From positions 558,001 through 622,000 of the forward strand of contig NW_019028992.1 of assembly GCF_002105155.1 (NCBI RefSeq): 64,000 bases of DNA, written 5' to 3'. Below, piece by piece: positions 5,442-63,663 of the stretch (position 1 is the first letter of the stretch; each line of letters starts with the position of its first letter). Under the pieces are notes generated by a model. The model was not told where the DNA came from. It saw only the letters and a program-made list of their open reading frames with translations, and did not search any database. Position numbers and translations under genes: made by a program. The DNA is from Lobosporangium transversale. Taxonomy: Eukaryota.

Positions 5442-5881
5442 ATGATGAGGTCGGCAAACCAATTAAGAGTAAGCACGGTTCCGTAGTGTCGTAGAGCATC
5501 TACTAGTGATCTCTGGAAACTAGTAGGTAATAATGAAAAATGAAGAATTGGGCAAGAGCCTCGTGGTTTTGGGATACGATAGTGATCCTAAGTAATGCTT
5601 TGAATGATTTTGAGGATGCTGCAAAAGGGCATCGATAATAAGAAGAGAGATCTTTAATAACTGCTAATTTTCTGAGAATTCATAATGAGAATAATGAAGA
5701 TAAACTCACCTGCAAAAGGGCATCGATAATAAGAAGAGAGATGCCGTTTTTGCAGTGAAGGAAAAAGCTACTTAAATACTATTTAAAAATGGTAGAAAAT
5801 AGGATGATAGGAAATAAATAAATTGAAAGGAAATACATATTTAGGTAAATGAATAGGCGTCATTTACGACAGTAGTTCCGT

Positions 5882-7394
5882 GGTGGGCAGCCATTTCGAG
5901 AGCGCTCTTTAAGCAGGGCGGGAAGGTAACTGTGAAATGGGTCAAGGGCCATGCTGGGAATAGAGGCAATATAAGGGCAGACCAAGCCGCCAAAGATGCT
6001 CATTTTAGCGAAATGTGGACAATCAAAGTACTGGAACACAACGATCTGCGCTGCCACGCTATTTTCGAGAACGAGGTGGTGGAGGATGATCTTAGACACC
6101 TGCTAAAACTCCAATCAGCAGTGAGAACACATTACTTGTGGGCGTCTCAGAACAGAGTCAGGAATTATATTGCAGACTGGCGAGAAGTAGAATGGAAAGC
6201 AAGCCTGCATATTCTTCACGATGGCAACACGCCTAGAGGCCTCTTCACCAGCCCAGCAGATTGTCACAAGAGAGCGCACAGAATAAAGAAGGTCCATGGT
6301 ATGCTTCCTACACTCACTTATATGAGGCAGTGGCGACCGGACCTGTATGAGACTGACATCTGCAGGATGTGTGAACAGGAGCAGGAGGACATAGAACACC
6401 TCTGGCGATGTCCCATGACACTGGACGAGCAATTGAAAGGTTGGAAGCAGGCCATAGAACTCATCACGAAGGATGGCAAAAGAGCATTAGTGAAGGAGAA
6501 GAAGCTCTGGGAAGACAAACAAGGGAAAACACAGGAGCCAAACCTGAATAAAGGAGGCCCCTCGTTTACACCTGTAGCCGACAACGTGATTTGGGGCTCT
6601 TTGGAAGCGATGTTCAAGGGCGTCAGAGAGATTCGACATGCGAGCACTCTGTTTGGTGAGGAAGATGTGGATATGGGACGGAGGAACGAGGGTGAGCATG
6701 CCCACTGGACTGTCCAAGACTTGTACCACGGTTTGGTGCCGAAGGAACTGATACAAAAATGGAAGACGATCTTCAGAACCACAGCATCGATCTCAAGGTA
6801 CATTGTTTGCCGCTTTGTCAAGTCAATCGAGGAACTCGGCAGGACTGAAATCTGGAACAGACGCTGCAAAGTCACCGTCAACTGGGAAAGAGAAAATGGT
6901 ATCACCTCTGTGAGCAAACGCGCCAGGGGACGCAACTGTGTTGGGAGGCACAGACGTAGCAGAGGTGAATTCTTTGGCTCTCACCAGGGACAACGACGAA
7001 CAGCAGATGTGAAGGCGATCAGGACTGAGGCAGACCGGCGAGTGGCGGCAAGCTACCGGCAGCAGGTGGAATTGGCGATTATGGAGCGCCTGGAAAGCTG
7101 TAAATTTTTGATGATTGAGGACAGCGGCTAAAGGATGACCTTCGCGCACAACAGGCCAAGTAGGGAGTAGAGCCGTGCCACAGGTCCTCTGGGACCAAGG
7201 AAGTCTACTCAATGCTGACGTGGTTTATGAACAGGATGTAGTACTGTGGCAGTATGACGATGCGGCTTCGGCCGATTATTGGATACCGCTTTATTTGCGA
7301 CCCCAGTAATGGGGCAACCCATTTATAGAGCTAACATCTAAATAAATCCTACATGACCTCGTGGGTCCTTGTTATCAAAAAAAAAAAAAAAAAA
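5882..7394 (+). mobile_element. 5'-truncated non-LTR retrotransposon (LINE) with RNase H remnant, zinc knuckle, 3' UTR and poly(A)
   Basis: ORF 5932-7131 has the RNase H C-terminal motif WVKGHAGNRGNIRADQAAK and CRMC...EDIEHLWRC. Poly(A) at ~7377-7394. Perfect 20-bp TSD ATTTACGACAGTAGTTCCGT at 5862-5881 and 7395-7414. Confidence 0.93.
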
Positions 7395-7525
7395 ATTTAC
7401 GACAGTAGTTCCGTAGTTCCGTCGGTATTAGTAAATTATGTAATTATGACTCATTCCTTAAGTGCACACTCCGCAAATGCACGTTCCGCGATATAAAATA
7501 TAAAAAAATAAAGGCCACGTCGGAA

Positions 7526-8161
7526 TCGTCAGGGCACCCCCCTGTCTAGCCCAGGGGCCGGGTTCGAGTCCTGGTTAAGGCACATAAAGTGAAGCAAACA
7601 TGTGCCAGGTCAGGGATTTGCTTGAGTTTTTATACTTTCTCTCCGAGACAGCCTAGTGTTCTCCGCTAAGGCTAAGATCGTGGGTGCACTACCCTAAGTC
7701 GCCTGGCTGGCCACATGTCTTAGGTATATATTCCACCCCCCAGCCGAACCAGCGGTACATCTGGCAGCACATCCCCCCATCCACCCACTTGACTAGGACA
7801 GCGATGATCACAAAGTTTGACGGAGTCCAAAGTAGAAATTTCAGACCAATCCCGCAAGATTTGGGTCCACATGCCAGTGGATTTGATCGAATAGAAAAGT
7901 TAAAGTCGTCCTTAGCTAGAGTTGGCACGCCAGCCTCCGCGGCTTTTCACGGGCGCAACAGGCCACATCGGAAGGATGGACTTCGAGTACCGATCACGGT
8001 GTACATTGGTAGAGAAAAACATGGATACGAATTGGCTCTTCACAGCCATACCGTGCGAACTTTGAGAGTTTCGCTTGTTTCATATTTGAGGGCGATATCA
8101 TTACTTTAGAGCGAGATTATGAAATAAAATTCCTCGCCTCTGTGGGTTCTTGTTAACACGG
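7526..8161 (+). mobile_element. Candidate tRNA-derived SINE with LINE-like 3' end
   Basis: tRNA-like T arm/B box CCGGG-TTCGAGT-CCTGG at 7558-7574. Segment ~7950-8000 resembles the LINE 3' UTR at ~8917-8965, and the 3' tail resembles both LINE ends. Flanked by the 19-bp direct repeat AATAAAGGCCACGTCGGAA (7507-7525 and 8162-8180). Confidence 0.55.
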
Positions 8162-8180
8162 AATAAAGGCCACGTCGGAA

Positions 8181-9119
8181 AGGAGCACCTTTTTGGATCT
8201 CTCAAAGATATTGGCACTGAAAGAGTAAGTATGGCATTTGGTGTGGTAGTCCAGACACAAGAGGGTGATTTTTACACTGCGCTATCTGGTAGAGTAGCAG
8301 GCAACGCATCCTCGACAAAGGCAGAGCTAGCTGGTTTGTTGGCAGGAATACTTATCAGCCCACGAAACAGACCTATGACAATCCGACTCGATAACAGCGC
8401 AGTTGTGACTCAATTCCGAGCATTGGTCCGAGGCAGAGTGGATAGCACGTTGCGACAACGTATTAGATCACCGTATGCAGTATGGTGGGCAGCTATACAC
8501 AACGCATTTATTCAACAAGGATCGGAGGTCACGGTCGAGTGGGTCAAAGGACATGCCGGCAACCGAGGGAACGAAGAAGCGGACGAAGCAGCAAAACATG
8601 GACATTATGGCGAGCTATGGGATATCAAGGTAACTGTCCCGGACTCGGTCATCCGCGATCTTGTAGATCTCTTTTACATTCAACTTCTGTCTTTGTCTGA
8701 GGGAAGGGACAAGGAAATCATTGCTACTACGTCTGTGCTCCCCAACACAGTTGCGTCCTCTAGCGCGTTTGCTCATAGCAGTGATTCCACGAGCCTTTTC
8801 CCATTCAACGGTGACTTTACACCGTTTGTTCCAGGGGAAAACCAAACTGGACGTGATGGAGCGGCTAGGTGGAATGAAGTTTTTGATGACTATGGATAGC
8901 GGATAATTTGTCGCGTTGCGCAACAGGCCACGTCGGAAAGGTGGACTTTGAGTACCAACCACGGCGGTCAGGGTTTATGAAATCATGGATGCAGCGGCTC
9001 TTGCCGTTTGTGCAGTAATAACTATTTATTGACTATAGTTTCTGGAGCATTTTGTTCATAGAGTGTAGAAAATAAGTCCCATGACCCTGAGGATCCTTGT
9101 TGTCAAAAAAAAAAAAAAA
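8181..9119 (+). mobile_element. Rearranged LINE fragment (RNase H, inverted internal block, C-terminus, poly(A))
   Basis: RNase H motifs SSTKAELAG, IRLDNSAVV and WVKGHAGNRGNEEADEAAK. Block ~8630-8830 is homologous to the first LINE on the opposite strand. Ends LDVMERLGGMKFLMTMDSG*, with poly(A) at ~9105-9119. The 5' boundary is approximate. Confidence 0.85.
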
Positions 9120-14680: not shown

Positions 14681-16810
14681 ATGACCATCCAAATTGTGCC
14701 CCTCGGCGCAGGACAGGACGTAGGACGCAGCTGCATCCTCGTTACTATCGGTGGCAAGAATATTATGCTCGACTGTGGCATGCACATGGGCTTTAATGGT
14801 AAATAAATGAGCCTTACTTTTTTTTTTTTTTGACCAAGAACTCATCATATATTAGTCCTTTTAGTAGTTAATGACATTCTTCTTATTCTTGATTGCGCCT
14901 TCTCAGATGAACGTCGATTCCCAGACTTTTCTTACATCTCTAAGACTGGCGATTTCACTGAAATGCTCGACTGTGTAATCATTTCCCATTTCCATCTTGA
15001 CCACTGCGGTGCTCTACCCTTTTTTACAGAGATGTGCGGATATGATGGCAACATTTACATGACACATCCAACCAAAGCTATCTGTCCTATTTTACTTGAG
15101 GACTATCGCAAGATCACTGTCGACCGCAAGGGTGAACGTAACTTCTTTACCAGTCAGGATATCAAAAATTGCATGAAAAAGGTTATTGCCGTCAATCTGC
15201 ATCAGACCATCATGGTTGATGATGACTTGGAAATTTGTGCCTACTATGCCGGACATGTTCTTGGTGCTGCCATGTTTTATATCCGTGTAGGTGAAGAATC
15301 CTTAGTCTATACAGGCGACTACAATATGACACCGGATCGGCACTTGGGGAGTGCTTGGATTGACAAAGTGCGACCCGACGTCTTGATCACGGAATCAACT
15401 TATGCCACCACTATTCGCGACTCGAAGCGATCAAGAGAGAGAGACTTTTTGAAAAAAGTTCATGACTGCGTTGCTGATGGGGGCAATGTTATCATCCCTG
15501 TCTTTGCACTGGGTCGTGCACAAGAGCTTTGTATCTTGATTGAAACATATTGGGAGCGTATGGACCTCAAAGTCCCGATCTACTTCTCTGCAGGACTCAC
15601 GGAAAAGGCAAACCACTTTTATCGACTTTTTATCAACTGGACCAATGAAAAGATCAAGAGTACGTTTGTGCACCGCAACATGTTTGATTTCAAGCATATC
15701 AAGGCTTGGGATAGGTCCTACATGGATTCACCAGGTCCTATGGTTGTCTTCGCCACTCCAGGAATGCTGCACAGCGGAACATCACTTGAGCTTTTCAAGA
15801 AATGGGCCCCTGATCCCAAGAATATGGTCATCATGCCTGGTTATTGTGTCGCAGGGACAGTTGGATCCAAGGTCTTGGCTGGCGAAAAAAAGATTCAAAT
15901 TGATGCTTTTAATTCTGTAGATGTCAATTTACAGGTCAAGAATCTATCATTCAGTGCACACGCAGATGCAAAGGGCATTATGCAGTTGATTCGGCAATGC
16001 GAGGCCAAGAATGTAGTCTTGGTTCACGGTGAAAAGAGCTCCATGGGATTCTTAAAATCTAGGATCATGACTGAATTTGGCATCCCTTGCTTTGACCCTG
16101 CCAACGGCCAAACTATCAGCATTGAGACTAGTCATGTTATTCCTATCGAAATGTCAGCTAGCCTACTGAAACAACATTTGATCCGCCAGTCTGAGACTAC
16201 AGTAGAGAATACAAACGAAGGATTGACCTCTTCTAGTAGTCCAGATGATAGCTCTGATGAAAACCTTCAACAACCCATCAATCTTAAAAAGCCACTAAGC
16301 ATAAAGCCCAAGGATAAAGTACTAATCCAAGGCATGCTTGTAATGGAAGATGGAAAGCCGATCCGATTAGAAGATGCAGAGGAAGCGTTGGACAGAGTTG
16401 GCACTGCCAAGCACAAAGTGCGGTTTGAGGTTCGAAAAGCTTATAATGCAACAGCATTGCGCATGGCAGTTGAAGAACCAGAATACTATAAAAGGATGGC
16501 ACGTTCAGCAGATAATGATTCCACAGAAATGGAGCATGTTTCAGAAGATCTAGAAAATGACTGGGATAGTGATGCGTTTGCTTTGGATCTTGTTTATGTA
16601 GCACTACAAAAATCGATTGGAAATCATATCAAGCTGGCCCGAGAGGGGGAGAGTGGCGCTATTGTTGTACGTAGTGTTCGGATCCGGGCGCCAACAGAAC
16701 AAGATGAATTTGAACGAGGAGGGCTTTTGATAGGATGGGATTACCAAGATGAAGATCTCGCAACTAGAATATTGTCAGTTGTCGCCTTAACTCTTGCTGC
16801 CAATCGCTGA
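14681..16810 (+). CDS. INTS11: Integrator complex subunit 11 (CPSF73-like beta-CASP metallo-beta-lactamase endonuclease)
   Basis: Exon 1 (14681-14798) [39 protein letters not shown], intron 14799-14906, exon 2 with [39 protein letters not shown] and SFSAHAD. These motifs are INTS11-type rather than CPSF73/Ysh1-type. Confidence 0.93.
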
Positions 16811-17046
16811 AATAGTCAACGCAACGTCCCTCTTTTTATTTTATTTTTTCCTATGATCTTTGTACATAAATCCAACTCACACAACATGTATACCCAATTA
16901 TTAATTGAGTTTATGATTGATTGCAAATGTTTAAATTGCTTCAGCAATGCATAAAGCGCTATACGTATTATCCATGAACATCTTCAATAGCTTCATTTTT
17001 TTGTCAATATATTTTCTTTATTAGATACTAAACTAGTGAAGAAGAC

Positions 17047-20000
17047 TATGTGCAATTATAAACAAGAAGATATTGGGGGATTGCGGGATTGTGGGTATTG
17101 TGAGTATTGTGGGTATTGTGGGTATTGTGGGTATAGATGGGAGTTCGAGAAGGTCCTGCTTCTCATAGGATCCCATGGGTCCTCAATAGGTGATGAAGCC
17201 TGCACCAACAAGATATTACTGAAAATTAAAAGAAAAGAAAAAAAAGATAGATAGATAAAAGTGGCTATACAAACATATTCATGTTCGGCTTAAGGCCCTT
17301 AGGCTTGAAGATTGCTTATGCGTCCTCCTCAATGTTCATGACTGGACGATAGCGGCTGCCACCCGCATATTGTGCCTCAGCCTCAGAAGCTTCTTGCTCA
17401 ATGTTCATGACTGGACGGTAGCGGCTACCACCAGCGTACTGAGCCTCTTGTTCAATGTTCATCACAGGGCGATAACGACTGCCACCGGCGTACTGGGCCT
17501 CAGCCTCAGAAGCCTCAGCCTCAGAAGCCTCTTGTTCAATGTTCATCACTGGGCGATAGCGACTACCACCAGCGTACTGGGCCTCTGGCTCAGCAGCTTC
17601 TTGCTCGATGTTCATCACTGGGCGATAACGGCTGCCACCGACGAACTGTGCCTCCTGCTCAATGTTCATCACTGGACGGTAGCGGCTACCACCAGCGTAC
17701 TGGGCCTCTGGCTCAGCAGCTTCTTGCTCGATGTTCATCACGGGACGATAACGACTTCCACCTGCATACTGTGCCTCATGTTGGATTGGGAGTGCCTGAA
17801 CTGTGGCAATGGAAGCTGCAATAGAGAAAAGGAGTGTGGTCTGGAACTTCATGGTTGGTTATGTGTACGAGAGAGAGAAAGAGAGAAAAGTTGTTGAGAG
17901 AAGTAAAAGTGTGAGTGGGCGAGTGAGTGAGTGAGAGTAAGAGTAAGAGTCTGAGAAAATGGGAAAGATGCAAGTAAGCTGATGTAGCTATTCTTTGCTT
18001 GAGTGGATGGAGAAAAGACTGTTTGAGTGAAGAACTGGTTGGAAGTGGAGGATGTCCACTGTATTTATATGTGAATCCTCCCTTTTCATTCATCGCCGAT
18101 CTATGTAACACCACGGGCGCCTGTTTCCATGCATGGTTACACGTTGTTGTGCAACAAGCCTTGTTCTCGACTCAAGGAGCAGCCATAATTGCATTTTGCA
18201 ATCGGCAACGGCCCAGCTGAGCGGTTGACGGAGGATTAACGGGAATTCCCAGCAGAGACATATTGCTTATACTGATGAATAAGGGGGGAGGAGCAAAGGA
18301 AGAAAGAAGAGGTCGTGCGCAGGTCTGTTCGCTCTCAAAGTCTGTTCGACCAATCGCCTGTATGGCGGGGTGCAGGAAACCTTGCTGAAGTAACCTAATA
18401 AACATTCCAGTAAAACCAAGAAATGAGCACAGACAGCAAGGTCGTCTCACTAAAACAGCCGTGGCATAAGAAAACAAGTTATTATTGTCTTGGAAAACAA
18501 GTTCAGGCACAAGGCCTAACCTCTTATATTTATTGCTCCGCCTGATGATCTACTGTCACCAGCCCTGTGTGTCTCGCATGGACGCTCATCGATGTTTCTA
18601 AATAACTAGATGACTAGATGATTAAATGACTAAACAACCAAATGGTTAAGTGCTGGTGACAGACTATCCATCTGTTCTCTTCTTGCATTAGTTGTTGCAG
18701 ATATGGGCGCAATGAGGAAATGACAGACCATGGCCTTATATCACCTTCTTTGAATTCTAGATAGAAAAAGAGAAAAAGAAATTTACGCCGGTGCGGTGTC
18801 TGACCTTTGTTTGTGTTGCTCACTGTTTCTCTCTCTCTCTTATAGAAAGGAAGAAAAAAATCCGTGCTGCTTCCTCTCTGGACCATGTCAACGGTTAGAA
18901 GGTCAAGGCGGCGACAAGTCTGCAAAGAGTCAAGAATTGAGGGTGAACAAGTAAAGTAGAAAGAAGGTTACGGATTTTTGCTTACAGCTCGACTGTTGAC
19001 TGGCTGTAGCATATGTAGCACAGGCTGAATCGATTGACTCTCATCACCGATCTTGTACTTGAGACATCCCCCATAGACATTCCTTCCACCAATCCCACCA
19101 ACTTTAGTAAGAAAAGGTACAAAATAGCGTTATCGCTTCTAGATTTCTTCCAGACATTGCTACTTTGGTATGTTGCCGAACTCTCTACCGAGCTAATTGC
19201 TAATTGCCAATCGTCATTCGTCCGCGCCTTCTGTTTCCTGTTGCCCAATTGCTTAATCCTATTGGGGTCCTATTGCGAAAAAGGCCGACACATGGCATCC
19301 CTCTGAATATAGGTTACACACATACTCTTACTTCTTGTTATTGCTCTTAGCTAGTATCGCTCCCGAGCCCTTTGTTGAGGAAAGAACCTTGTTGTGACCC
19401 CTCTCTCTAGGTTTGAGTACTGTGTTACTATGTCTATTTTGCATTTCCACCCTAGGATGTTTCGCGTCTCTCTCTCTCTTTCTCTCTACAGCTCTCTAGC
19501 TGTGATTATAGTACAGGCGTCGGTATATAGATGGTATGATAGTGAGGTAATATGTTAGTATCCGCAATATGAATGCATCAATCTCAATTATAGAGTCTTC
19601 CAAGCACTTTACGCATTAGTTCTTTTTGTCTGATTCATTTCACTTATTCCCAAGTCAGCAAGCCAGCAACAGCCAAGAAAGATAGAGGTGGTCATTTATT
19701 TTATATGACATTACATGGCCCAAACAACACAGCAGACCTGATAGCAACTTTGTAACCTACAATCTGCATTGATCTGCATCGAAACATGGCCCAGAAAAGA
19801 GGAAAAAGAGATGCGGGGCGCATATTATTATTCTACGGTGTGGAGAAGTTCAGAAAAAGGATACAGCAATCAATGTGTATACAATATTATGGTACGTATT
19901 CAATTATGACCCTAAACATGCATGCATGCACGCTAAGATTGTAACACATTACATTCAATGCTGTAAAATAATTAAGACTAAATATCGACCATGTCAGCAG

Positions 20001-20445
20001 AAGTTCTTGTTTTACATTTATGACTACATTACAGTGTTACGTACCACTAGAAAAAGGTGCATGTAAAACAGTACAGAGTCATCTTGCAGCACTTGTTGCA
20101 CGAACTACATGTTCTGATTTCTATGGTTAATATCCAGAGCCAGATGCTCTTTTTTTCCTCTTCTTCTTTCTCTTGTAACACTTTCTCTTGCGAATGGCTT
20201 CATTTTATGCATGGAGGATACTTCATTTCATTATCTTTGTCAATCACATACGTAGATTTATGGCAAGCAGGCATGTATATCATTGAAAAAACCTCTTCTC
20301 TATATCTTTAGTAATTGCTAAGTATACATATATATACATATTATACATATTATACATGCGCAATTATGCGTTTTTAAATTATACACTCAGTAGAATCCTA
20401 GATTTCGCGAAAAGTCTGTTACAATAATAAGAGATAGCATATACT
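17047..20445. repeat. Left arm of 3399-bp inverted duplication
   Basis: Reverse complement of 22640-26038 (mirrored positions sum to 43085). ORFs lying wholly within the arms translate identically. One mismatch seen (20422 vs 22663). Confidence 0.97.
17316..17852 (-). CDS. Secreted tandem-repeat peptide precursor, copy A (7 cores, Tyr type)
   Basis: Signal peptide MKFQTTLLFSIAASIATVQA followed by 6x QYAGGSRYRPVMN and 1x QFVGGSRYRPVMN with acidic spacers. Repeats differ mainly at synonymous sites. Confidence 0.95.
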   Translation of the reverse strand: MKFQTTLLFSIAASIATVQALPIQHEAQYAGGSRYRPVMNIEQEAAEPEAQYAGGSRYRPVMNIEQEAQFVGGSRYRPVMNIEQEAAEPEAQYAGGSRYRPVMNIEQEASEAEASEAEAQYAGGSRYRPVMNIEQEAQYAGGSRYRPVMNIEQEASEAEAQYAGGSRYRPVMNIEEDA

Positions 20446-20829
20446 TTTTTTTTTTTTTAAAGAATATCTGCAAGCTGACTAAGGCATGAGAAAGAAGACA
20501 TTATCAATATCAAACCTTCTAGACCCTCAAACTCTGGCCAAGGATATGTGAAAGCTCCCTCTTGTTAAACTCACGCATTTATTGGTAAACATAAAATTAG
20601 CCATAAAATCATTTCACTTAGCCAATACGACAAGGATAATAAAAGATTGATTTATTATTTTTATTTTATTTTATTATATCATAGAATTATGAAATTAATA
20701 ACATATAATGGTTATAGATGAGGGTATAAGGTAGCAAATTTAAGAAGGACCGGCTTCTCATAAGATCTCATGGATCCTTTTTAGCGCAAAGCAAAGATTG
20801 TACAAATATTATCGAAACTAGAGTCTCAC

Positions 20830-21420
20830 TTATGCATCCTCCTCAATATTCATGACTGGACGATAACGGCTGCCACCAGCGAACTGCGCCTCTGGCTCAG
20901 CAGCTTCTTGCTCAACGTTCATCACTGGGCGGTAGCGACTGCCGCCTGCGAATTGTGCCTCGGCCTCAGAAGCGTCTTGTTCGATGTTCATGACTGGACG
21001 ATAACGGCTGCCACCAGCGAACTGGGCCTCTGACTCAGCAGCTTCTTGCTCAATGTTCATAACGGGGCGGTAACGGCTACCACCAGCGAACTGGGCCTCC
21101 TGCTCGATGTTCATCACAGGACGATAACGACTACCGCCTGCAAATTGTGCCTCGGGTTCGGAAGCGTCCTGCTCAATGTTCATGACTGGGCGATAGCGAC
21201 TACCACCAGCGAACTGGGCCTCAGGCTCAACATTCATCACGGGACGGTAGCGGCTGCCACCAGTGAACTGGGCTTCTGGCTGGGCCGCTTCCTGCTCGAT
21301 ATTCATCACAGGACGGTAGCGGGTACCTCCTGCAAACTGTGCCTCATGTTGGATTGGGAGTGCCTGAACTGTGGCAATGGAAGCTGCAATAGAGAAAAGG
21401 AGTGTGGTCTGGAACTTCAT
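20830..21420 (-). CDS. Secreted tandem-repeat peptide precursor, copy B (8 cores, Phe type)
   Basis: Same signal peptide, then 6x QFAGGSRYRPVMN, 1x QFAGGTRYRPVMN and 1x QFTGGSRYRPVMN. Confidence 0.95.
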   Translation of the reverse strand: MKFQTTLLFSIAASIATVQALPIQHEAQFAGGTRYRPVMNIEQEAAQPEAQFTGGSRYRPVMNVEPEAQFAGGSRYRPVMNIEQDASEPEAQFAGGSRYRPVMNIEQEAQFAGGSRYRPVMNIEQEAAESEAQFAGGSRYRPVMNIEQDASEAEAQFAGGSRYRPVMNVEQEAAEPEAQFAGGSRYRPVMNIEEDA

Positions 21421-21689
21421 GGTTGATTATGTGTACGATATTAAAAGAGAAGGGTATTTGTGTGTGGGTGTGAGGTTGAGAGATTAAAAGTTGGAGAGAG
21501 TGAGGATGGTGCAAGTAAGCTAGCGTGCTGTTATTTGCTTGAATGGATGGAGTAAGGACTAGTTGAATGAAGAACTAGATGAAAGTAGGGATGGCCACCG
21601 GTTTTATATGTGTCCCTAGACGAAGAGGAATGAACCCTTCATGCTCATTGACGGCTTTCTAGGCACCATGTACAACCATGGATGCTTGC

Positions 21690-22160
21690 TTCCATGCATG
21701 GTTACACGTTGTTGTGCAACAAGCCTTGTTCTCGACTCAAGGAGCAGCCATAATTGCATTTTGCAATCGGCAACGGCCCAGCTGAGCGGTTGACGGAGGA
21801 TTAACGGGAATTCCCAGCAGAGACATATTGCTTATACTGATGAATAAGGGGGGAGGAGCAAAGGAAGAAAGAAGAGGTCGTGCGCAGGTCTGTTCGCTCT
21901 CAAAGTCTGTTCGACCAATCGCCTGTATGGCGGGGTGCAGGAAACCTTGCTGAAGTAACCTAATAAACATTCCAGTAAAACCAAGAAATGAGCACAGACA
22001 GCAAGGTCGTCTCACTAAAACAGCCGTGGCATAAGAAAACAAGTTATTATTGTCTTGAAAAACAACCCCAGGCACAAGGCCTAACCTCTTATATTTATTG
22101 CCCCGCATGGCAATCGACTGGCAGTCTATTTGTGTCTCGCATGGATGCACACCGGTTTCT
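21690..22160. repeat. Upstream block shared by all three precursor genes
   Basis: 21690-~22057 is essentially identical to 18125-~18492 (and, inverted, to ~24593-24960). Similarity then decays to ~22160. Confidence 0.9.
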
Positions 22161-25015
22161 GAATGTGCATGGAAATGGCTGTATTTTTTGCTGAAAGACC
22201 GTTAGTGATGCCAGATGTGGGTATATGGAGACCACGCCTTGAGGTCTAGCCTTTCTTCGAACAGCTCATCCGGAATTATAAAGCACTCTTTTGTGTTCTG
22301 TACCATATTACTGGTTTGGACAAGTTTCCTAGTTTGCGACTCTTACTGACCGTTGGCAGATAGCATATTTGATCTTTCAAATGCTATTTATATTCTTCAA
22401 GCTTTGAGACAACAGTTTATTAAACCAAAGCGGTCAGATAATCAGTCAACATTCCCCTAAGGTTTTTGTCACATTTGCCATCTAAAGCATCGTGTAACTA
22501 TTGTGCAAAAAACCAGTTCATGCTGTAGTAGTATGTGAGCTATCGCAGACTGGAGGATGGGGAGGTTAGGGATGCCGAGACATTATGCTTGCTGCAAGAC
22601 CACAATTTGCAATAGGCATAGACATGGCTATCATGCGCCAGTATATGCTATCTCTTATTATTATAACAGACTTTTCGCGAAATCTAGGATTCTACTGAGT
22701 GTATAATTTAAAAACGCATAATTGCGCATGTATAATATGTATAATATGTATATATATGTATACTTAGCAATTACTAAAGATATAGAGAAGAGGTTTTTTC
22801 AATGATATACATGCCTGCTTGCCATAAATCTACGTATGTGATTGACAAAGATAATGAAATGAAGTATCCTCCATGCATAAAATGAAGCCATTCGCAAGAG
22901 AAAGTGTTACAAGAGAAAGAAGAAGAGGAAAAAAAGAGCATCTGGCTCTGGATATTAACCATAGAAATCAGAACATGTAGTTCGTGCAACAAGTGCTGCA
23001 AGATGACTCTGTACTGTTTTACATGCACCTTTTTCTAGTGGTACGTAACACTGTAATGTAGTCATAAATGTAAAACAAGAACTTCTGCTGACATGGTCGA
23101 TATTTAGTCTTAATTATTTTACAGCATTGAATGTAATGTGTTACAATCTTAGCGTGCATGCATGCATGTTTAGGGTCATAATTGAATACGTACCATAATA
23201 TTGTATACACATTGATTGCTGTATCCTTTTTCTGAACTTCTCCACACCGTAGAATAATAATATGCGCCCCGCATCTCTTTTTCCTCTTTTCTGGGCCATG
23301 TTTCGATGCAGATCAATGCAGATTGTAGGTTACAAAGTTGCTATCAGGTCTGCTGTGTTGTTTGGGCCATGTAATGTCATATAAAATAAATGACCACCTC
23401 TATCTTTCTTGGCTGTTGCTGGCTTGCTGACTTGGGAATAAGTGAAATGAATCAGACAAAAAGAACTAATGCGTAAAGTGCTTGGAAGACTCTATAATTG
23501 AGATTGATGCATTCATATTGCGGATACTAACATATTACCTCACTATCATACCATCTATATACCGACGCCTGTACTATAATCACAGCTAGAGAGCTGTAGA
23601 GAGAAAGAGAGAGAGAGACGCGAAACATCCTAGGGTGGAAATGCAAAATAGACATAGTAACACAGTACTCAAACCTAGAGAGAGGGGTCACAACAAGGTT
23701 CTTTCCTCAACAAAGGGCTCGGGAGCGATACTAGCTAAGAGCAATAACAAGAAGTAAGAGTATGTGTGTAACCTATATTCAGAGGGATGCCATGTGTCGG
23801 CCTTTTTCGCAATAGGACCCCAATAGGATTAAGCAATTGGGCAACAGGAAACAGAAGGCGCGGACGAATGACGATTGGCAATTAGCAATTAGCTCGGTAG
23901 AGAGTTCGGCAACATACCAAAGTAGCAATGTCTGGAAGAAATCTAGAAGCGATAACGCTATTTTGTACCTTTTCTTACTAAAGTTGGTGGGATTGGTGGA
24001 AGGAATGTCTATGGGGGATGTCTCAAGTACAAGATCGGTGATGAGAGTCAATCGATTCAGCCTGTGCTACATATGCTACAGCCAGTCAACAGTCGAGCTG
24101 TAAGCAAAAATCCGTAACCTTCTTTCTACTTTACTTGTTCACCCTCAATTCTTGACTCTTTGCAGACTTGTCGCCGCCTTGACCTTCTAACCGTTGACAT
24201 GGTCCAGAGAGGAAGCAGCACGGATTTTTTTCTTCCTTTCTATAAGAGAGAGAGAGAAACAGTGAGCAACACAAACAAAGGTCAGACACCGCACCGGCGT
24301 AAATTTCTTTTTCTCTTTTTCTATCTAGAATTCAAAGAAGGTGATATAAGGCCATGGTCTGTCATTTCCTCATTGCGCCCATATCTGCAACAACTAATGC
24401 AAGAAGAGAACAGATGGATAGTCTGTCACCAGCACTTAACCATTTGGTTGTTTAGTCATTTAATCATCTAGTCATCTAGTTATTTAGAAACATCGATGAG
24501 CGTCCATGCGAGACACACAGGGCTGGTGACAGTAGATCATCAGGCGGAGCAATAAATATAAGAGGTTAGGCCTTGTGCCTGAACTTGTTTTCCAAGACAA
24601 TAATAACTTGTTTTCTTATGCCACGGCTGTTTTAGTGAGACGACCTTGCTGTCTGTGCTCATTTCTTGGTTTTACTGGAATGTTTATTAGGTTACTTCAG
24701 CAAGGTTTCCTGCACCCCGCCATACAGGCGATTGGTCGAACAGACTTTGAGAGCGAACAGACCTGCGCACGACCTCTTCTTTCTTCCTTTGCTCCTCCCC
24801 CCTTATTCATCAGTATAAGCAATATGTCTCTGCTGGGAATTCCCGTTAATCCTCCGTCAACCGCTCAGCTGGGCCGTTGCCGATTGCAAAATGCAATTAT
24901 GGCTGCTCCTTGAGTCGAGAACAAGGCTTGTTGCACAACAACGTGTAACCATGCATGGAAACAGGCGCCCGTGGTGTTACATAGATCGGCGATGAATGAA
25001 AAGGGAGGATTCACA

Positions 25016-25021
25016 TATAAA
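25016..25021 (+). promoter_or_regulatory. Putative TATA box of precursor copy C
   Basis: TATAAA ~215 bp upstream of the ATG, followed by a CT-rich leader. Copy B has a CATATAAAAC at a similar position near 21601-21610. Confidence 0.45.
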
Positions 25022-25232
25022 TACAGTGGACATCCTCCACTTCCAACCAGTTCTTCACTCAAACAGTCTTTTCTCCATCCACTCAAGCAAAGAATAGCTA
25101 CATCAGCTTACTTGCATCTTTCCCATTTTCTCAGACTCTTACTCTTACTCTCACTCACTCACTCGCCCACTCACACTTTTACTTCTCTCAACAACTTTTC
25201 TCTCTTTCTCTCTCTCGTACACATAACCAACC

Positions 25233-25769
25233 ATGAAGTTCCAGACCACACTCCTTTTCTCTATTGCAGCTTCCATTGCCACAGTTCAGGCACTCCCAAT
25301 CCAACATGAGGCACAGTATGCAGGTGGAAGTCGTTATCGTCCCGTGATGAACATCGAGCAAGAAGCTGCTGAGCCAGAGGCCCAGTACGCTGGTGGTAGC
25401 CGCTACCGTCCAGTGATGAACATTGAGCAGGAGGCACAGTTCGTCGGTGGCAGCCGTTATCGCCCAGTGATGAACATCGAGCAAGAAGCTGCTGAGCCAG
25501 AGGCCCAGTACGCTGGTGGTAGTCGCTATCGCCCAGTGATGAACATTGAACAAGAGGCTTCTGAGGCTGAGGCTTCTGAGGCTGAGGCCCAGTACGCCGG
25601 TGGCAGTCGTTATCGCCCTGTGATGAACATTGAACAAGAGGCTCAGTACGCTGGTGGTAGCCGCTACCGTCCAGTCATGAACATTGAGCAAGAAGCTTCT
25701 GAGGCTGAGGCACAATATGCGGGTGGCAGCCGCTATCGTCCAGTCATGAACATTGAGGAGGACGCATAA
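25233..25769 (+). CDS. Secreted tandem-repeat peptide precursor, copy C (same protein as copy A)
   Basis: 178-aa ORF with a translation identical to 17316-17852. Confidence 0.95.
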   Translation: MKFQTTLLFSIAASIATVQALPIQHEAQYAGGSRYRPVMNIEQEAAEPEAQYAGGSRYRPVMNIEQEAQFVGGSRYRPVMNIEQEAAEPEAQYAGGSRYRPVMNIEQEASEAEASEAEAQYAGGSRYRPVMNIEQEAQYAGGSRYRPVMNIEQEASEAEAQYAGGSRYRPVMNIEEDA

Positions 25770-26464
25770 GCAATCTTCAAGCCTAAGGGCCTTAAGCCGA
25801 ACATGAATATGTTTGTATAGCCACTTTTATCTATCTATCTTTTTTTTCTTTTCTTTTAATTTTCAGTAATATCTTGTTGGTGCAGGCTTCATCACCTATT
25901 GAGGACCCATGGGATCCTATGAGAAGCAGGACCTTCTCGAACTCCCATCTATACCCACAATACCCACAATACCCACAATACTCACAATACCCACAATCCC
26001 GCAATCCCCCAATATCTTCTTGTTTATAATTGCACATAACATGTTATATATAATTATCTATTATTTAATAAAAGAACATTGCGATTAAAAAAAAGCTAAC
26101 AGATATTGATATTGAAAACTCTAAAGAAAACTATTGAAGTATACCAGTAGCATAATAAGTAATGAGAGCGAAAGAATGATGTATTTATTATGACCCAGGA
26201 ATTCTCGTTAAATAAAAGTGGATAAATATCTTAACACCCATATAAATGACTGCTAATCGCAACAAGCATCTGTCATGTTATTGTCTGCAAAGTTATGTAA
26301 ATCATTATAGGTATTATTTAAAAATTTTGATGTATAAGAGTAGAAGGTTGTTGTTACATTTAAGTGTATATAATTGAATGCAGATAGAAGTTATTAGATA
26401 TGTAATTTTTGATAGGCTTGGAAGAGAGCAGGCGCGGGATGTTCTGCTTCTCTCTTTCTCCGTC

Positions 26465-26650
26465 TTATTGGAGGTAAAAAGCAGAGTTCATGCTGTTGTT
26501 TGCGACCTTCTGCATCGCCTGGTAGATCGTATCATCCTTGGTCTGTACTTGAGTGGAAGGGCGCTCCTCGTGGATGGAGGTACGGGGTGTTTGAGCTGGG
26601 GTTGCGGCAGCTGAGGCAGACTTGTTCTTGTTGGACTTGAAGAGAGGCAT
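26465..26650 (-). CDS. 61-aa microprotein of unknown function (paralog of 28570-28773)
   Basis: MPLFKSNKNKSASAAATPAQTPRTSIHEERP... shares 29 of its first 30 residues with the + strand paralog, with synonymous differences. TATA-like motif upstream. Confidence 0.8.
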   Translation of the reverse strand: MPLFKSNKNKSASAAATPAQTPRTSIHEERPSTQVQTKDDTIYQAMQKVANNSMNSAFYLQ

Positions 26651-27263
26651 AGTTGGCTTGATTGTGTGTGGATGTTTTTGTAGTGATGGAGTTGTAAAGT
26701 ATTTATCTTTTTGTGGCTTTGATTTGCTTACAGATGTGATGAAAAAGAGGAAGAGGGAGTAAAGATGGCTTTTTATACGAAGTTGACCGTGCCGTTTATG
26801 AATGTTCCCAAGATATTTTTCAGTTCGGAAGGAGAGCATGGGCCTCCATGGTTTTAGCAGGGATTCTATTTTAGTGTTCTTTTCCTTCGCCCAGAAGTGG
26901 AGAATGAAAAAATTAATTGCCTCATTTTCCCATGACATGTCCTGAGAAAAAAGAAGTGTTTCGGTGCCTGAAATTTTATTATTTCATTACTACCGCAGTT
27001 GTTTCGTCAGCCATTACTCATACCATATTTAGCAAATGATTAAGAAATCGGGTTTGGTTTGATTCCTAAAGACTTTATCACAAAGGATGGAAAAGTCGAC
27101 GGTTTTAAAAAAATACCGCTATTCTTAGGAACTTTGCTAGTTGGTGAAGATGCTTTGTTCATCACACTGAATAATTTTTTTTTCCTTCAACAGATCTTGA
27201 CAGTTGGAAAAACTTCTTAATGGGGTAGATATTCAACACATTTCATTGTATATATCTATCGGT

Positions 27264-28569: not shown

Positions 28570-28773
28570 ATGCCTCTCTTCAAGTCCAACAAGAACAAGT
28601 CTGCCTCTGCTGCCACCACCCCGGCTCAGACACCTCGCACATCTATTCACGAAGAGCGTCCTATGACAACCAAGGCCGGTACCAATGCTCACAAGATGAC
28701 TCGCGATCAAGCTCTCGAGGTTATCATGAAGACGTCTATGGGCAATGCCGCTAATACCGCTTTCGCTCAATAA
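28570..28773 (+). CDS. 67-aa microprotein of unknown function
   Basis: ORF with ACCATG context, C-ending codon bias, upstream TATAAAA, CAA-rich leader and a conserved paralog. Confidence 0.8.
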   Translation: MPLFKSNKNKSASAATTPAQTPRTSIHEERPMTTKAGTNAHKMTRDQALEVIMKTSMGNAANTAFAQ

Positions 28774-43276: not shown

Positions 43277-43705
43277 GCAGTAAAAGAGATGAAGTAGCAA
43301 GTGACAAGTACAGTTATTCTAGCAAATGATAATAAGAAAAAAAAAAGAGATGGAATTGTGCTTCGCCCACGAGTAGATGCATGCTCATTGGTTTATAACC
43401 AAAGGAATGACCGCAGCAAAAATGTAATGCAACGCCTCCATTTCCCCCTCATAAACACATTCTCATTTATCCATTATCACGAGAGAAAGAGGAGATCGGG
43501 AGCATAAAATGGTGAGCCCTTTTTTCTTTTTCTTTTTTTTCCCTTCTTTCTTTCTTTCCTTTTTTTATCTTAAAAGACTTCCCCTTTTCTAAGAGAAAAA
43601 AAAAAAAAATCAACACATTCTTTTTACAAATATACCAAATCAAACAATCACCAGTAGCAAAAGACTCACTTTGTTTAGCAAAGCAAAAAAAAAGTGACAC
43701 CAAAC

Positions 43706-46700
43706 ATGGGTATCAACAAAATTGACAAGGATGCAAAAATAGAAGTAGAAGCAATCTGCAAGGCATTCCATCCACTGGAAAATGATGATTCTGTAACAGT
43801 ACTATCCTTCAAGGTTCCTCCTCCTGCGCCACTTAATACTGAAGACGGAGATGGCTCTGCTGCTGCGACAGCTGTATTGCAGAAGAAGGAAGCCTTCTTC
43901 GACATTTGTCTCGATATTTCGGGATCCATGGCAGGGTCTGGAATCGCATGCGCGAAAAGGGCGATGAAAAATCTCATCCGTCATCTAATTGAGAATTGTA
44001 GTGTGCCATACTCCAGAATTACGGTCTATCTATTTCAAAGCGACTGCAAAGTCCGACGTTTGAAGAGTGACAATGATTATGATTGGATCGATAGTATAAA
44101 AGCGGGAGGAGGTAAAGCGAACATATTATTTTTTTCTCTTCTGCACTGCCCAATCATACTCTTGGGACTAATGGAGGCTATAAAGCTCATCAGCAGATTA
44201 GAGAGCAAGGGGAATTAACTTTTTTTATGCTTTCATATTTCAAGGAACGATTTTTGCCAACGTGTTCAAGGAGGTGATCAATAATACTGCCGCTCATCTT
44301 GAAGAAGTTGGGTCTGACAAGGTAGATGTGGAGATGACCTTGTTCTTCCTGACTGACGGCGAGGACGGGGACAGAGGCGCTTTGAATAGGATCAAGGGCA
44401 GCTTCGAGAACCTGCTAAAGGGTACGGAAAGGCTAGATACGACCGTTCATACATTTGGGTTCTCATCTAGCCATGATGCTAAGCTTTTGAGTTGGTTGAC
44501 GAGCATTGGAAAGAACAGTGGATGCTTCCAGTATATCCAGTCAGCGTCCGAGATCGAGACAGCAATGGCAAAGACATTGCAGCTGCTGGGTGACTCTTCT
44601 ATAATGGTCGCAAGGAGGAAAATAGAGATCCTCCCCATAGAAGATGGAGAAGTGGCCCAGAATGGGAGGAATTGGATCCCAGTCAAGCTGGAGAGTGATG
44701 GCCTATCTGGTTCAGCTGTGGTACGTGGCAAACTATTCACTGGAAGTCTGATCAAGTGGAGAGAGCAGCAGCAGCATACACAGGAGGACAACAACAGCAG
44801 TAGCAGTGTTACAAATGCTCCAGCTTCCCCATCTAATCAAGCCGTTCACGATATGCGCGTTGAATGGCTGCCAGAGGACAGTGTACAGCGTATTCTATCT
44901 ATGATGACATTTATCCAGCACGAGCTCGTAAGACTAGTCGAAGTCATCAACGCTATTGGCAGCGGCTCCGGGTCCGCGAGTGAGAAGCGCACAAAGCTAC
45001 TCGCGGTTGACGCAGAGACGGAATCGTATACGAAAGTACTAGGCACCATGACCTCTGCAGCAGCAAGGATGAAGGACAAGGCTTCACGTGAGCCTTGCAT
45101 GTTGGCTTGTCAACAGACTCGATCACTCCTTCAGTCATTCCTGACCGTCAAGGCAGACGCCCACAAACAAGGCGGATCGATTTCCAACACCAGCTTGGCG
45201 ACATTCAATTCCCTCGCGTATGGCCAGATTACAGAGGCCAAGCTGAAGGCTAAACTGGACGCTAGGGCTGGAAAGAACACGGCATTGTTTGCAGACCTTG
45301 ATGAAAAGGTGAAGTCGATTGTGGAGGGTATGGATCTTGATGCGATGGAAACTGCAGAATCTGAGGATAAACTCCGTGAGCTTTCTTGTGCATTCTCAAC
45401 CAACAGCTACATCGAGGCGCTTCGTGATGGTGATTGTCTTTGCATGACTATGGACGGTAAGCGCTTTTTTTTTTTTTTTTTTTTTTTTTCTTGTGGATAA
45501 TTTAAAACTGAAATTCTTTTCGTTATTGATTTCTGACACATGAATTTACAAACGTAAATGGTTTGATGACTATTTATAGTATCTCGAGGCGCTGGCACTA
45601 TCGCAGACCCAAGTCAGTTGGTGATCAAGTCTATCTTCCCAACTTACCTGACCTCATCCATGTTTACCATGGCTCTGGGCCATTCACTCTCGCAAAACAC
45701 TCCTGAAGACGTTCATGGGGGCTTTGATCGCAATAGTTTTGCTAGCATTGCTCCTGGTGTTGCTCATGAGAATATTACTGCAGTTATGCCTCTTTACATT
45801 AATAAGGAGCATTGGCAGGTAGCTAAGCTGCGTATGAAGGTAAGGCGGTATCTACAGCCTCTTGTATGTGGTTCGGATTCTTTGCACCCGGGGGTGCAAG
45901 CCTGGTGCCGAGTATTAACAAAAATATCGTTGTACCATTTCTATGCTATTCTATGTTGTAGCCTATCCTGGGTTATGTGGTGACACTGGACGCGACGGGA
46001 TACACTTACAGCCAGTCGACGACCGTGCCTTTCCTTGTCTTGGCCAAAGCCATAGAGTCTTATCCCATGACAGAATTTAGACAGCACCAGATCAAGTTAA
46101 TTCTTGAGACCTGCGATGCCATCTACTTCGACTCAAGGAACTTGCGTGACACTACAAGATCGATGGTCCAGCAGTACTGTAGCTCACATACGCAGCGTAC
46201 TGTAGACGTGGTGGTCAACAACTACGTATTCTTAGGTCACATCATTTGCGCATTGCGTGCTGGTGATATTACGGGGGAGGAGATGAGGGCCATGATGCCT
46301 AAATTTGAGACTGCCATCATAGAGGAGCAGATCCGTAGAGACATGTCCTGGAGAGTTTCGGAAGATTTAATGGGAAGTGTGATGGACTGGTTCAATATCG
46401 ATAGACAAAGAGACATTGTTATCCCTGGACGCCGATACCGCGAGCAGCACGATGCTTATGTAAGAGCATTGGAAAAAGAGAGAGGTGATTTTGGCATCGA
46501 GGGGCAATATCGTGCTCTGTTTGAAGCCACGAGGCTGAAGCAAGGCGTCAAGGAGACTCAACCAGCTGAGTCCGAGAAAGCAGAAGCAAAGGTGGACTCA
46601 AAGTTGTCACCATCAGTAGTAGCGTCTTCCCTATCCATATCCGATCCAGCAGTTATGGTGAAACCAGAGTTTAGCGTTCCAGAGTTTGATCCTGTCCAAT

Positions 46701-47747
46701 GGGAAATCTCGGAAGCATCCTTAGATCGCTTAAGCATGATCCAGCATGCTGTCTCTACAAGTGTTGACAAGATTCGCCGGCTTCTAGAAGTAGTGAAATC
46801 TCCATTTGATAACGAATTGTCTGAAGTCCTAACCGTACGTCTGGGGTCCTTCCCACATAAGGGTCTTTCGGATGAGTTTTTTGCAAGGTATTCTACCAAG
46901 GTTAACCTTGCAACGCTGCTTCAAGCCTATGCTCACGTCAAGAACTCTGACCGCCGGTCGATTGAAAAGTTTATGACCCCTTTTGAGCGTGAGAAGGCTA
47001 CAGGGCCAGACACTGTTGCAGACGAAGCCCTTCAGTTCCTTAAATCATTACAGAATGCAAAGATGGCTCAGATGGTGAACGAAATTGTATCTGCGGTCGA
47101 AGAAGAGTATCTCGAATCGAAGAAGAATGGAGCTGCATCCATTTTCTTGAATACAATGGACCTAACGGTGGCAGCAGCTGTGTTGATCGAGTCCAAGTAC
47201 AGGGGAGGCACAGGAGGTTCGTTGGTCACGCTTTGCGCAAGATCAGACATGACTTTGCCACGTGAAAAAATCCAGATGATGCTCAGCGGAGTGTTTATGG
47301 GTGTTCGTTTGTTTTCAGACAAGAGTGGAGCCGGTAAGACTCTTTTCTCCCCTCTTCCCACAATTCATTTTTTGGTATATTTTGCTAAGCATTTATCCAT
47401 GATTTTTTTTTTTTTTTTTTATAGCAGAGGATATTCGCTGGTTCCCCTGCAAACAGACACTCTATCGCATGTTCATGAGATACCACGACAAGTTCACACT
47501 AAGCGAGTGGTACGTTTATTTCCCTTTAACATATTGTCGACCTAACTGTTTTTTTGATTCGCTTTTATTATTAGTTAGGATAGAGGTATTAACATCCTCA
47601 ATCTCGTTTTTTTCTAGGCGTCAGTTCCACCCTAATAATTATGATGACTATTTTGCATACCGATATGTCATTGATGGACATCTCTCAGAGCTTCCAGAGG
47701 AGGGTCAGTCTGAAGTCAAGGCGATCTACGAGGGTCGTTTCAGTTGA
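43706..47747 (+). CDS. Large von Willebrand factor type A domain protein, multi-exon
   Basis: MIDAS motif LDISGSM, GG|GT, FFLTDGED and HTFGF. Long helical C-terminal region of unknown function. Confidence 0.85.
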
Positions 47748-49092: not shown

Positions 49093-49353
49093 ATGTACAA
49101 GTCCTTGGTATTCATTGGCGCTTTCTTGTTCTCTGCCGCCTCTGTCCAGGCTGCCCCTACTACTCAGGACAGTGGTTCGTGGTGCTACAACCCCAAGAAT
49201 GAACCTTACTGGGGTGCTGCCACTGCCTCCTGCTGCAATGGCTACCTTGGAGGAGACCGTCGTTGCCACAGCATCCCCGACTGCGGAGCCTTTTATCGCT
49301 GCTGCATTGTCAACTGGAATAGCGGTAACCACGCAGACGATGGTTGCCATTAG
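49093..49353 (+). CDS. Small secreted 8-cysteine protein (86 aa), copy 1
   Basis: Signal peptide ending VQA. Pattern C-x15-CC-x9-C-x5-C-x5-CC-x13-C. Paralog at 63403-63663. Splice acceptor 6 nt upstream of the ATG. Confidence 0.92.
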   Translation: MYKSLVFIGAFLFSAASVQAAPTTQDSGSWCYNPKNEPYWGAATASCCNGYLGGDRRCHSIPDCGAFYRCCIVNWNSGNHADDGCH

Positions 49354-63402: not shown

Positions 63403-63663
63403 TTAGTAGCATTTATCAGACTCGTGGTTGCCGCTGTTCCACTTAATCATGCAGCAGCGGTAGAAAGCCCTGCAGTCGGAGATGTTGTGGCAGCGACGGT
63501 CGTCTCCAAGGTTGCCATTGCAGCAGGAGGCAGTGGCAGCACCCCAGTAAGGTTCATTCTTGGGGTTGTAGCACCACGAACCACTGTCCTGAGTAGTAGG
63601 AGCAGCCTGGACAGCGACGGCAGAGAACAAGAAAGCACCGATGAGAACCAAGGACTTGTACAT
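63403..63663 (-). CDS. Small secreted 8-cysteine protein (86 aa), copy 2
   Basis: 71/86 residues identical to 49093-49353 with all eight Cys conserved. Same 5' UTR acceptor position. Confidence 0.92.
   Translation of the reverse strand: MYKSLVLIGAFLFSAVAVQAAPTTQDSGSWCYNPKNEPYWGAATASCCNGNLGDDRRCHNISDCRAFYRCCMIKWNSGNHESDKCY

Follow-up and report, generated by a model that had tools for sequence, protein, structure and literature searches.

We report a small gene cluster in a 64,000-nucleotide stretch of Lobosporangium transversale DNA (RefSeq assembly GCF_002105155.1, contig NW_019028992.1, positions 558,001 to 622,000 of the forward strand; the whole stretch is called the window, and coordinates count from its first letter). 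The cluster encodes a real, transcribed, selected, and apparently undescribed family of secreted-type multi-unit precursors of the Mortierellaceae, whose Lobosporangium members are without dibasic sites. Its architecture has precedents, whereas its peptides, spacer logic, and lineage are new. In our leading reading, to which we give a little less than an even chance, the transcribed genes would yield disordered secreted-type repeat proteins that are cut into 7-8 short Gly-rich linear signal peptides, in the manner of alpha-factor but without dibasic sites. We ranked this above defence peptides, a cyclic peptide made on ribosomes and modified after translation (RiPP), an intact polymer, and plain Kex2/Ste13 processing, in descending order. 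L. transversale belongs to the Mortierellaceae and not to the Mucorales, whose trisporoid signalling a preliminary description of this DNA had brought up for comparison. The Integrator subunit gene INTS11 in the window was 100% identical to that of L. transversale and at most 91% identical to those of other Mortierellaceae.

Three stop-free single-frame open reading frames (ORFs) carried the repeat Q[YF][AVT]GG[ST]RYRPVMN, in 7, 8, and 7 copies respectively:

17316-17852, minus strand: gene 1, 178-aa precursor with 7 units; ORF, covered by RNA contigs
20830-21420, minus strand: gene 2, 196-aa precursor with 8 Phe-type units
25233-25769, plus strand: gene 3, 178 aa, DNA-identical to gene 1

EA preceded and [IV]E followed the repeat in 22 of 22 units, and at the DNA level a degenerate pattern encoding RYRPVMN[IV]E matched 22 times, with 0 matches in each of 100 shuffles. 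KR, RR, KK, and RK were absent from all three proteins, whose sole Lys is residue 2. The preliminary description had listed the three ORFs, their flanking residues, and the lack of KR, RR, and KK, all of which we reproduced, RK being absent as well. Its three-gene cluster stands as three ORFs; since genes 1 and 3 are DNA-identical, the number of distinct genes is two instead of 3, and that of independent repeats 15 instead of 22. The gene 1 product consists of a predicted signal peptide, an LPIQHEA pro-piece, 7 units (six copies of QYAGGSRYRPVMN and one QFVGG variant), and a C-terminal IEEDA directly before the stop. Gene 2 encodes six copies of QFAGGSRYRPVMN, one Thr6 variant, and one Thr3 variant. 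Unit length is 18, 23, or 28 residues, in no regular order.

Strong purifying selection acts on the repeats, as had been proposed earlier. Over the 13-residue core, the proportions of synonymous (pS) and nonsynonymous (pN) differences were 0.685 and 0.030, giving a pN/pS of 0.044 (105 pairs from 15 distinct repeats, the pairs not being mutually independent). pN was 0 for RYRPVMN and for the preceding EA, pN/pS was 0.09 in the N-terminal half of the core and 0.11 in the pentamer after it, and synonymous sites among the repeats were close to saturation. Selection bears on the possibility that the same processing yields weapons or effectors aimed at bacteria, fungi, or roots instead of self-signals. 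High copy number and gene duplication would maximise output, cores differ between genera, and the acidic spacers could mask the +2 charge of the 13-residue core (mature precursor, -11 to -12). However, the strict purifying selection falls on one core with no diversification, the charge is low, the 18-residue unit is neutral, and there is neither an amphipathic pattern nor any Cys. We consider defence peptides unlikely, and the antimicrobial role suggested in the preliminary description gains little from a core charge of only +2 and a neutral unit.

Public sequencing data comprised three DNA runs (X1, the deepest; X2, about 10x; and X4, of low depth) and run X5. An X5 contig was spliced across the GT..AG intron of INTS11 (14798-14905), and X5 was therefore judged to be RNA, no run being recorded as such. 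X5 contigs covered gene 1, whose transcription the preliminary description had presumed, and their ends gave a weak hint of transcript ends. A piece of gene 2 with its 3' flank was also among the X5 contigs, at low depth. The features around the 5' ends of the genes were as follows:

17049-18018, minus strand: RNA cover of gene 1 including its untranslated regions, from X5 contigs
17793-17852, minus strand: predicted signal-peptide region of gene 1, residues 1-20
18064-18069, minus strand: TATA-like box, 217 nt upstream of the start codon of gene 1, putative function
18125-18492, unstranded: 368-bp upstream element, gene 1 copy, identical to the gene 2 copy
21690-22057, unstranded: 368-bp upstream element, gene 2 copy, from sequence comparison
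24593-24960, unstranded: 368-bp upstream element, gene 3 copy, placed by inverted-repeat symmetry

The TATA-like box of gene 2 is at -188. The first 27 codons of genes 1 and 2 are identical in DNA (a 90-bp exact run), and the 3' flanks of the two genes aligned no better than shuffles. We infer from this contrast that gene conversion has acted on the promoter and signal region of these genes, and the 368-bp element is likely a shared regulatory region homogenised in this way. The element had no Rfam match, and the ORFs scanned in it had no Pfam match. A short contig found in all four runs including X5, and matching 17388-17423, reads as a further repeat variant with Gln for Ser at position 6 and a spacer pentamer absent from the window. 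Its loose ends are also absent from the window, and another paralogue therefore lies elsewhere in the genome.

Genes 1 and 3 are carried on the arms of an inverted duplication of 3,399 bp that flank gene 2:

17047-20445, unstranded: left arm, gene 1 and 2.6 kb upstream
22640-26038, unstranded: right arm, gene 3, with one mismatch versus the left arm

We compared this arrangement with the three DNA runs, two of which (X1 and X2) are possibly the source of this very DNA. Contig breaks mostly matched the predictions of the window's k-mer graph, the exceptions being one small bubble collapsed in all runs and one break lost in X4. Contig depth, which does not equal copy number, was 1.11, 2.0, 1.91, 2.22, 3.48, 2.05, and 3.01 in X1 (scaled to two gene 2 pieces) for predicted copy numbers of 1.12, 2, 2, 2, 3, 2, and 2.89, a fit on 7 of 7 pieces. 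Two results spoke against gene 3 being an exact copy: two pieces with a predicted copy number of 2 had X2 depths of 1.07 and 1.10, and none of the three runs showed the contig break expected at 17047. A cover gap at 18574-20300 in all runs was uninformative, since contig records are filtered. Gene 3 is likely a recent duplication; its status as an exact copy is partly backed by the public runs, with the outer junction unconfirmed. The outer edge of the duplication (17047) lies within 2 bases of the end of the gene 1 RNA contig (17049).

The N-terminus of the precursors fits a predicted signal peptide, with a hydrophobic helix at residues 2-20 (mean Kyte-Doolittle hydropathy 2.08) and a cleavage site of the A-x-A type, V-Q-A before LP, conserved in three homologues. 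NxS/T sites numbered 0, and there was no long glycosylated pro-region. AlphaFold2 models of both precursors contained the signal helix only (predicted local distance difference test, pLDDT, 45.6 and 42.7; predicted template modelling score, pTM, 0.12 and 0.13), and the proteins are accordingly modelled as disordered. The models bear on whether the protein is secreted uncut, as a surface coat, an amyloid, or a beta-solenoid. Such a polymer would agree with the absence of canonical cleavage sites, and an Atlas model of the gene 2 protein (pTM 0.54, pLDDT 0.61) aligned to beta-repeat proteins, all of them below the Atlas bar. Yet neither AlphaFold2 model had a fold, the 18-, 23-, and 28-residue units do not alternate regularly, the precursor proteins had no PDB match, and the 16-residue TxT/SLT motifs given for Mortierellaceae ice-nucleation proteins in the available text of PMC12978214 are absent. 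An intact polymer is thus improbable in our estimate, more so than the defence peptides.

A phmmer search over 1.84 billion representatives returned 11 matches, among them three true homologues, all from Mortierellaceae:

P0005: L. transversale paralogue, 103 aa, no dibasic sites
P0006: Dissophora ornata homologue, complete precursor
P0007: Mortierella sp. AM989 homologue, partial

The other 8 of the 11 turned out to be unrelated repeats when their sequences were inspected. A profile search among 7,988 candidates of 51-368 aa recovered no homologue beyond the 3 inputs, and a word-index search with gene 2 had no match. Metagenome scans gave 42 pattern matches, none of them confirmed, and 12 of 12 metagenome loci from the signal-peptide pattern were out-of-frame or unrelated once translated. 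The exact proteins of genes 1 and 2 were not found in a 15-billion-protein collection that does contain another small window protein; the gene 2 protein is present in the Atlas. Pfam matches of genes 1-3 were all below cut-off, and 16800-26500 had no Rfam match. The homologues keep MKxQ and V-x-[AG]-L-P-I-x-[HR]-E-A, together with P-[VAR]-M-[NKDS]-[ILM]..EA in every unit, with a variable stretch of 7-11 Gly-rich residues ahead of the Pro (QYAGGSRYR, GGEYGTGRRL, YGFGRNL, VFGGGSGGAL). Counted over 26 units from 5 sequences (15 units in the window and 11 outside), 23 had the junction Pro (8 of the 11 outside the window), 25 had a Met two positions further on, and 22 had an Arg three residues ahead of the Pro position. 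In P0006, 4 of 5 units carry RR, aligned on this Arg. P0007 has one RR, ahead of its first unit, and both of its complete units are without the Arg.

Spacers are made of 5, 10, or 15 residues of optional x-E-x-[ED]-A pentamers, and the product must therefore sit between Gln and the first EA after it. The run of XA/XP dipeptides extends only 2-6 residues back from Gln and never reaches Asn (13 of 13 spacers). A cut after Asn followed by Ste13 trimming thus fails in all of them, which calls for an endoprotease that acts at EA or close to it. LPIQHEA, the pro-piece that follows the signal (LPINHEA in P0006), resembles an internal block (LPVMNLKEA in P0006), and all 4 distinct complete precursors end on an acidic follower (IEEDA twice, LDQEA, and LKEAD). 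This likeness and the terminal block suggest a recognition spacer in the block and, in the Gly-rich segment, a payload of 7-10 residues and not 13. The block, P-V-M-N-[ILM]-x(1-2)-EA, is the most conserved part across genera and straddles the boundary between the proposed 13-mer core and its spacer, which makes the 12-13-mer core of the preliminary description doubtful. An opposite reading is possible, in which RYRPVMN would be the invariant active end. R-x-[LV]-x is the consensus of site-1 protease; a site-1-protease-like reading of RPVM was dropped, no support for this enzyme in Mucoromycota being found in the portions of the literature available. A cut by asparaginyl endopeptidase was set aside, since 4 of 11 homologue units have K, D, or S in place of Asn.

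These features can be arranged into a pathway for linear signals. Gene 1 is transcribed, as judged from contig-level RNA cover, and its product would enter the endoplasmic reticulum with predicted signal cleavage between VQA and LP. A cut after the acidic x-E-x-[ED]-A would free Gln1, which may then cyclise to pyroglutamate (pyroGlu); an endoprotease would be needed here, with Ste13 at most finishing the last EA/EP dipeptides. Cutting a second time, either at the conserved Arg/Pro ahead of VMN or directly behind it, a Kex2-type enzyme acting on a single Arg, or some other protease, would release pyroGlu-[YF]AGGSR(YRP) of 7-10 residues, P-V-M-N-I-x-x-E-A serving as the putative recognition spacer. 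A receptor and a role in cell-to-cell signalling are suggested by analogy. We put a 7-10-residue product at roughly even chances, and regard the 13-mer and the 18-residue unit as equally and distinctly less likely products. The copies are nearly identical inside a precursor and differ from genus to genus, which fits an alpha-pheromone-like logic. Precursors with Ste13 signatures were put forward as peptide-hormone candidates in the available text of PMC6339444, and that of PMC9769878 reports detected pyroGlu peptides derived from repeat proteins that Kex2 processes (KEPs), mentions peptides bounded by single Arg, and describes Ste13-type trimming in basidiomycetes. The part of PMC12582325 at hand is relevant only to a possible receptor assay.

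The second cut of the linear-signal pathway overlaps with another explanation, an ordinary KEP cut by Kex2 at a single Arg (between S/T-R and Y) and then trimmed by Kex1/Ste13 and general exopeptidases, with no dedicated enzyme. The RR of P0006 aligned on this very Arg, P0006 itself would fall under the KEP rule (at least 3 repeats of at least 8 residues between dibasics), and an Arg at this position in 22 of 26 units points the same way. The cut would, however, leave 11, 16, or 21 residues ahead of Gln that are not XA/XP runs, and neither complete P0007 unit has an Arg there. We judge this explanation very improbable. The non-Kex2 route of the preliminary description held in so far as genes 1-3 have no dibasics, and is unproven in view of the RR in 4 of 5 Dissophora units and the Arg in 22 of 26.

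The conserved flanks also raise the possibility of a RiPP. By analogy, macrocyclisation would depend on the follower, a transamidating protease reading V/A/R-M-N-[ILM]..EA and joining the Pro-ending Gly-rich core head-to-tail (a 10-mer in genes 1-3). Variable Gly-rich cores between conserved flanks (5 sequences and 26 units, with the motif chosen after reading), the junction Pro in 23 of 26 units with a Met two later in 25, the follower retained after the last core in all complete precursors, and the four different cores of P0005 would all suit such an enzyme, and the cassette logic agrees with that of PatA/PatG in the available text of PMC10885120. No candidate enzyme was found among the window ORFs scanned (232 of 235 stop-free stretches of at least 65 aa outside the cluster and 29 of 44 of at least 45 aa inside it, shorter exons being excluded); specifically, no DUF3328, tyrosinase, peptidase, or transporter was present, which leaves the RiPP system of the preliminary description unsupported. 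Pro-specific macrocyclases are known as cytosolic enzymes, whereas these precursors have a predicted signal peptide, and 3 of 11 homologue units are without Pro. Table 1 of PMC7329392 lists a DUF3328 neighbour for 0 of 357 Mucoromycota KEPs. We hold the cyclic RiPP to be unlikely, marginally behind defence peptides. A broader proposal, doubtful though less so, is a ribosomal pathway of the Mortierellaceae's own, in which a secretory protease reading P-V-M-N-[ILM]..EA would excise, and perhaps macrocyclise, Gly-rich 7-11-mers.

Several points weigh against the linear-signal reading. No enzyme or receptor was identified, nor was any peptide detected. Transcription rests on one run, guessed to be RNA and present as contigs only, which give neither strand nor level. 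The family motif was written after its five sequences and 26 units had been read. P0005 carries four different cores, a better fit to a compound library than to a single hormone, and most homologue cores begin with a residue other than Gln, so that pyroGlu does not characterise the family. In the Atlas, feature similarity to MF-alpha clusters was only 0.75-0.79, below the Atlas bar. Finally, the available text of PMC3834313 cites trisporic acid as the sexual signal of Mortierellales, including Mortierella, and reports a STE3 orthologue, but no peptide pheromone of the Dikarya type, from a related arbuscular mycorrhizal fungus.

The genes flanking the cluster are of housekeeping type, comprising INTS11, a bHLH factor, an O-fucosyltransferase, and a mitochondrial carrier:

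14701-16890, plus strand: INTS11 (Integrator subunit 11), intron 14798-14905 confirmed by an RNA contig

Elsewhere in the window, two paralogous 86-aa proteins (49093-49353, plus strand, and 63403-63663, minus strand) have signal-like N-termini and 8 Cys. They share 88.8% DNA identity over 267 bp, have no Pfam match, and are candidate defensin-like or effector proteins; the protein collection includes the latter of the two, within a 3-member cluster that is unnamed or hypothetical. Two divergently oriented short ORFs (26558-26653, minus strand, and 28570-28773, plus strand) start with MPLFKSNKNKSAS and are 87% alike over about 95 bp; they had no Pfam match, and the product of 28570-28773 was absent from the protein collection. 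Two RNase H-bearing fragments at 5857-8899 are likely a decayed retroelement, and 43679-47747 (plus strand) is a large multi-exon gene whose first part weakly matches VWA and whose long later exons have no Pfam match.

KEPs are defined by repeats between KR, KK, RK, or RR sites in the available text of Umemura 2020 (PMC7329392), and both published surveys of fungal repeat precursors demand dibasic sites. One of them retained 7,878 of 69,264 signal-plus-repeat proteins, none from L. transversale according to the text at hand (PMC7329392). Its Table S1 records 0 KEPs for this fungus, the sole such strain of 39 Mucoromycota, in keeping with a family that dibasic-site surveys miss. The P0005 accession is not listed in the supplement of PMC7329392, and the absence of the motif from the available Table S2 is of little weight, its rows giving accessions and not sequences. 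The supplement of PMC6339444 had no Lobosporangium entry and no PVMN, and the core motifs had only unrelated matches in the accessible parts of the open-access literature. The match to a known family that the preliminary description had allowed for was thus not found in the KEP catalogues or open-access literature searched (subscription papers and bioRxiv supplements lay outside this scope). A transcribed, selected family without dibasic sites is a blind spot of those catalogues, and the finding supplies concrete peptide masses to look for. The calculated monoisotopic masses of the Tyr and Phe forms are 1480.688 and 1464.693 Da for pyroGlu 13-mers, 1136.536 and 1120.541 Da for pyroGlu 10-mers, 1135.552 and 1119.557 Da for cyclic 10-mers, and 2050.953 and 2034.958 Da for pyroGlu 18-mers. 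In the Mortierellaceae, fungi common in soil and in association with roots, the family would give access to peptide signalling or RiPP chemistry, and the RR-bearing Dissophora and RR-free Lobosporangium members form a natural pair for gain or loss of processing sites. A pathway of the Mortierellaceae's own, if real, would constitute a class of peptide hormones/pheromones or cyclic RiPPs in a lineage whose sexual signals are held to be trisporoids, and would supply the first member of a repeat-precursor class invisible to dibasic-site genome mining.

The precursors share with KEPs a signal peptide (here predicted), at least 3 tandem short units, small size, disorder, lineage specificity, and Gln-initial units able to form pyroGlu. 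The 7 and 8 tandem units of 18-28 residues lie within the KEP repeat range (at least 3 repeats of 8-100 residues). They differ in the dibasic flanks of the repeats, with 0 KR/KK/RK/RR in genes 1-3 and P0005, and in ending on an acidic follower; the Dissophora homologue nonetheless has RR in its units. Like ascomycete alpha-pheromone precursors (MF-alpha1; Kex2/Kex1/Ste13), the genes encode near-identical copies, each after EA or EP-EA, and a 13-residue stretch with Pro near its end. Unlike them, they are without KR before EA, though EA precedes 22 of 22 units; their spacers cannot be cleared by Ste13, the XA/XP run covering 2-6 of 5-15 residues in 13 of 13; and they have no long glycosylated pro-region and reside in Mortierellaceae. 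No MF_alpha or MF_alpha_N Pfam match was obtained for genes 1-3.

Dikaritin precursors (UstA of ustiloxin, phomopsin, asperipin-2a, and GigA of epichloecyclin) share the signal and repeats, and the YAIG of ustiloxin B, as given in the source text at hand, is loosely like the YAGG of gene 1 after acidic residues. Genes 1-3, however, are without Kex2 sites, no DUF3328 or tyrosinase lay among the window ORFs scanned, and the Tyr required for the ether link is Phe at position 2 in 8 of 8 gene 2 units. With cyanobactins (PatE, PatA/PatG; available text of PMC10885120) the cluster would have in common a succession of variable cores, flanked on the N- and C-side by conserved putative recognition sequences. 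These systems are bacterial and cytosolic with clustered enzymes, and the likeness is one of logic only. A Mortierellaceae ice-nucleation protein was rejected as a candidate, the 16-residue TxT/SLT/YGS beta-solenoid motifs of the available text of PMC12978214 being absent, the units being 18-28 residues long, and no fold being seen. Because neither dibasic sites nor, for the dikaritins, DUF3328 were found, the genes are not filed as members of these families, yet in their working they resemble KEPs and alpha-factor precursors.

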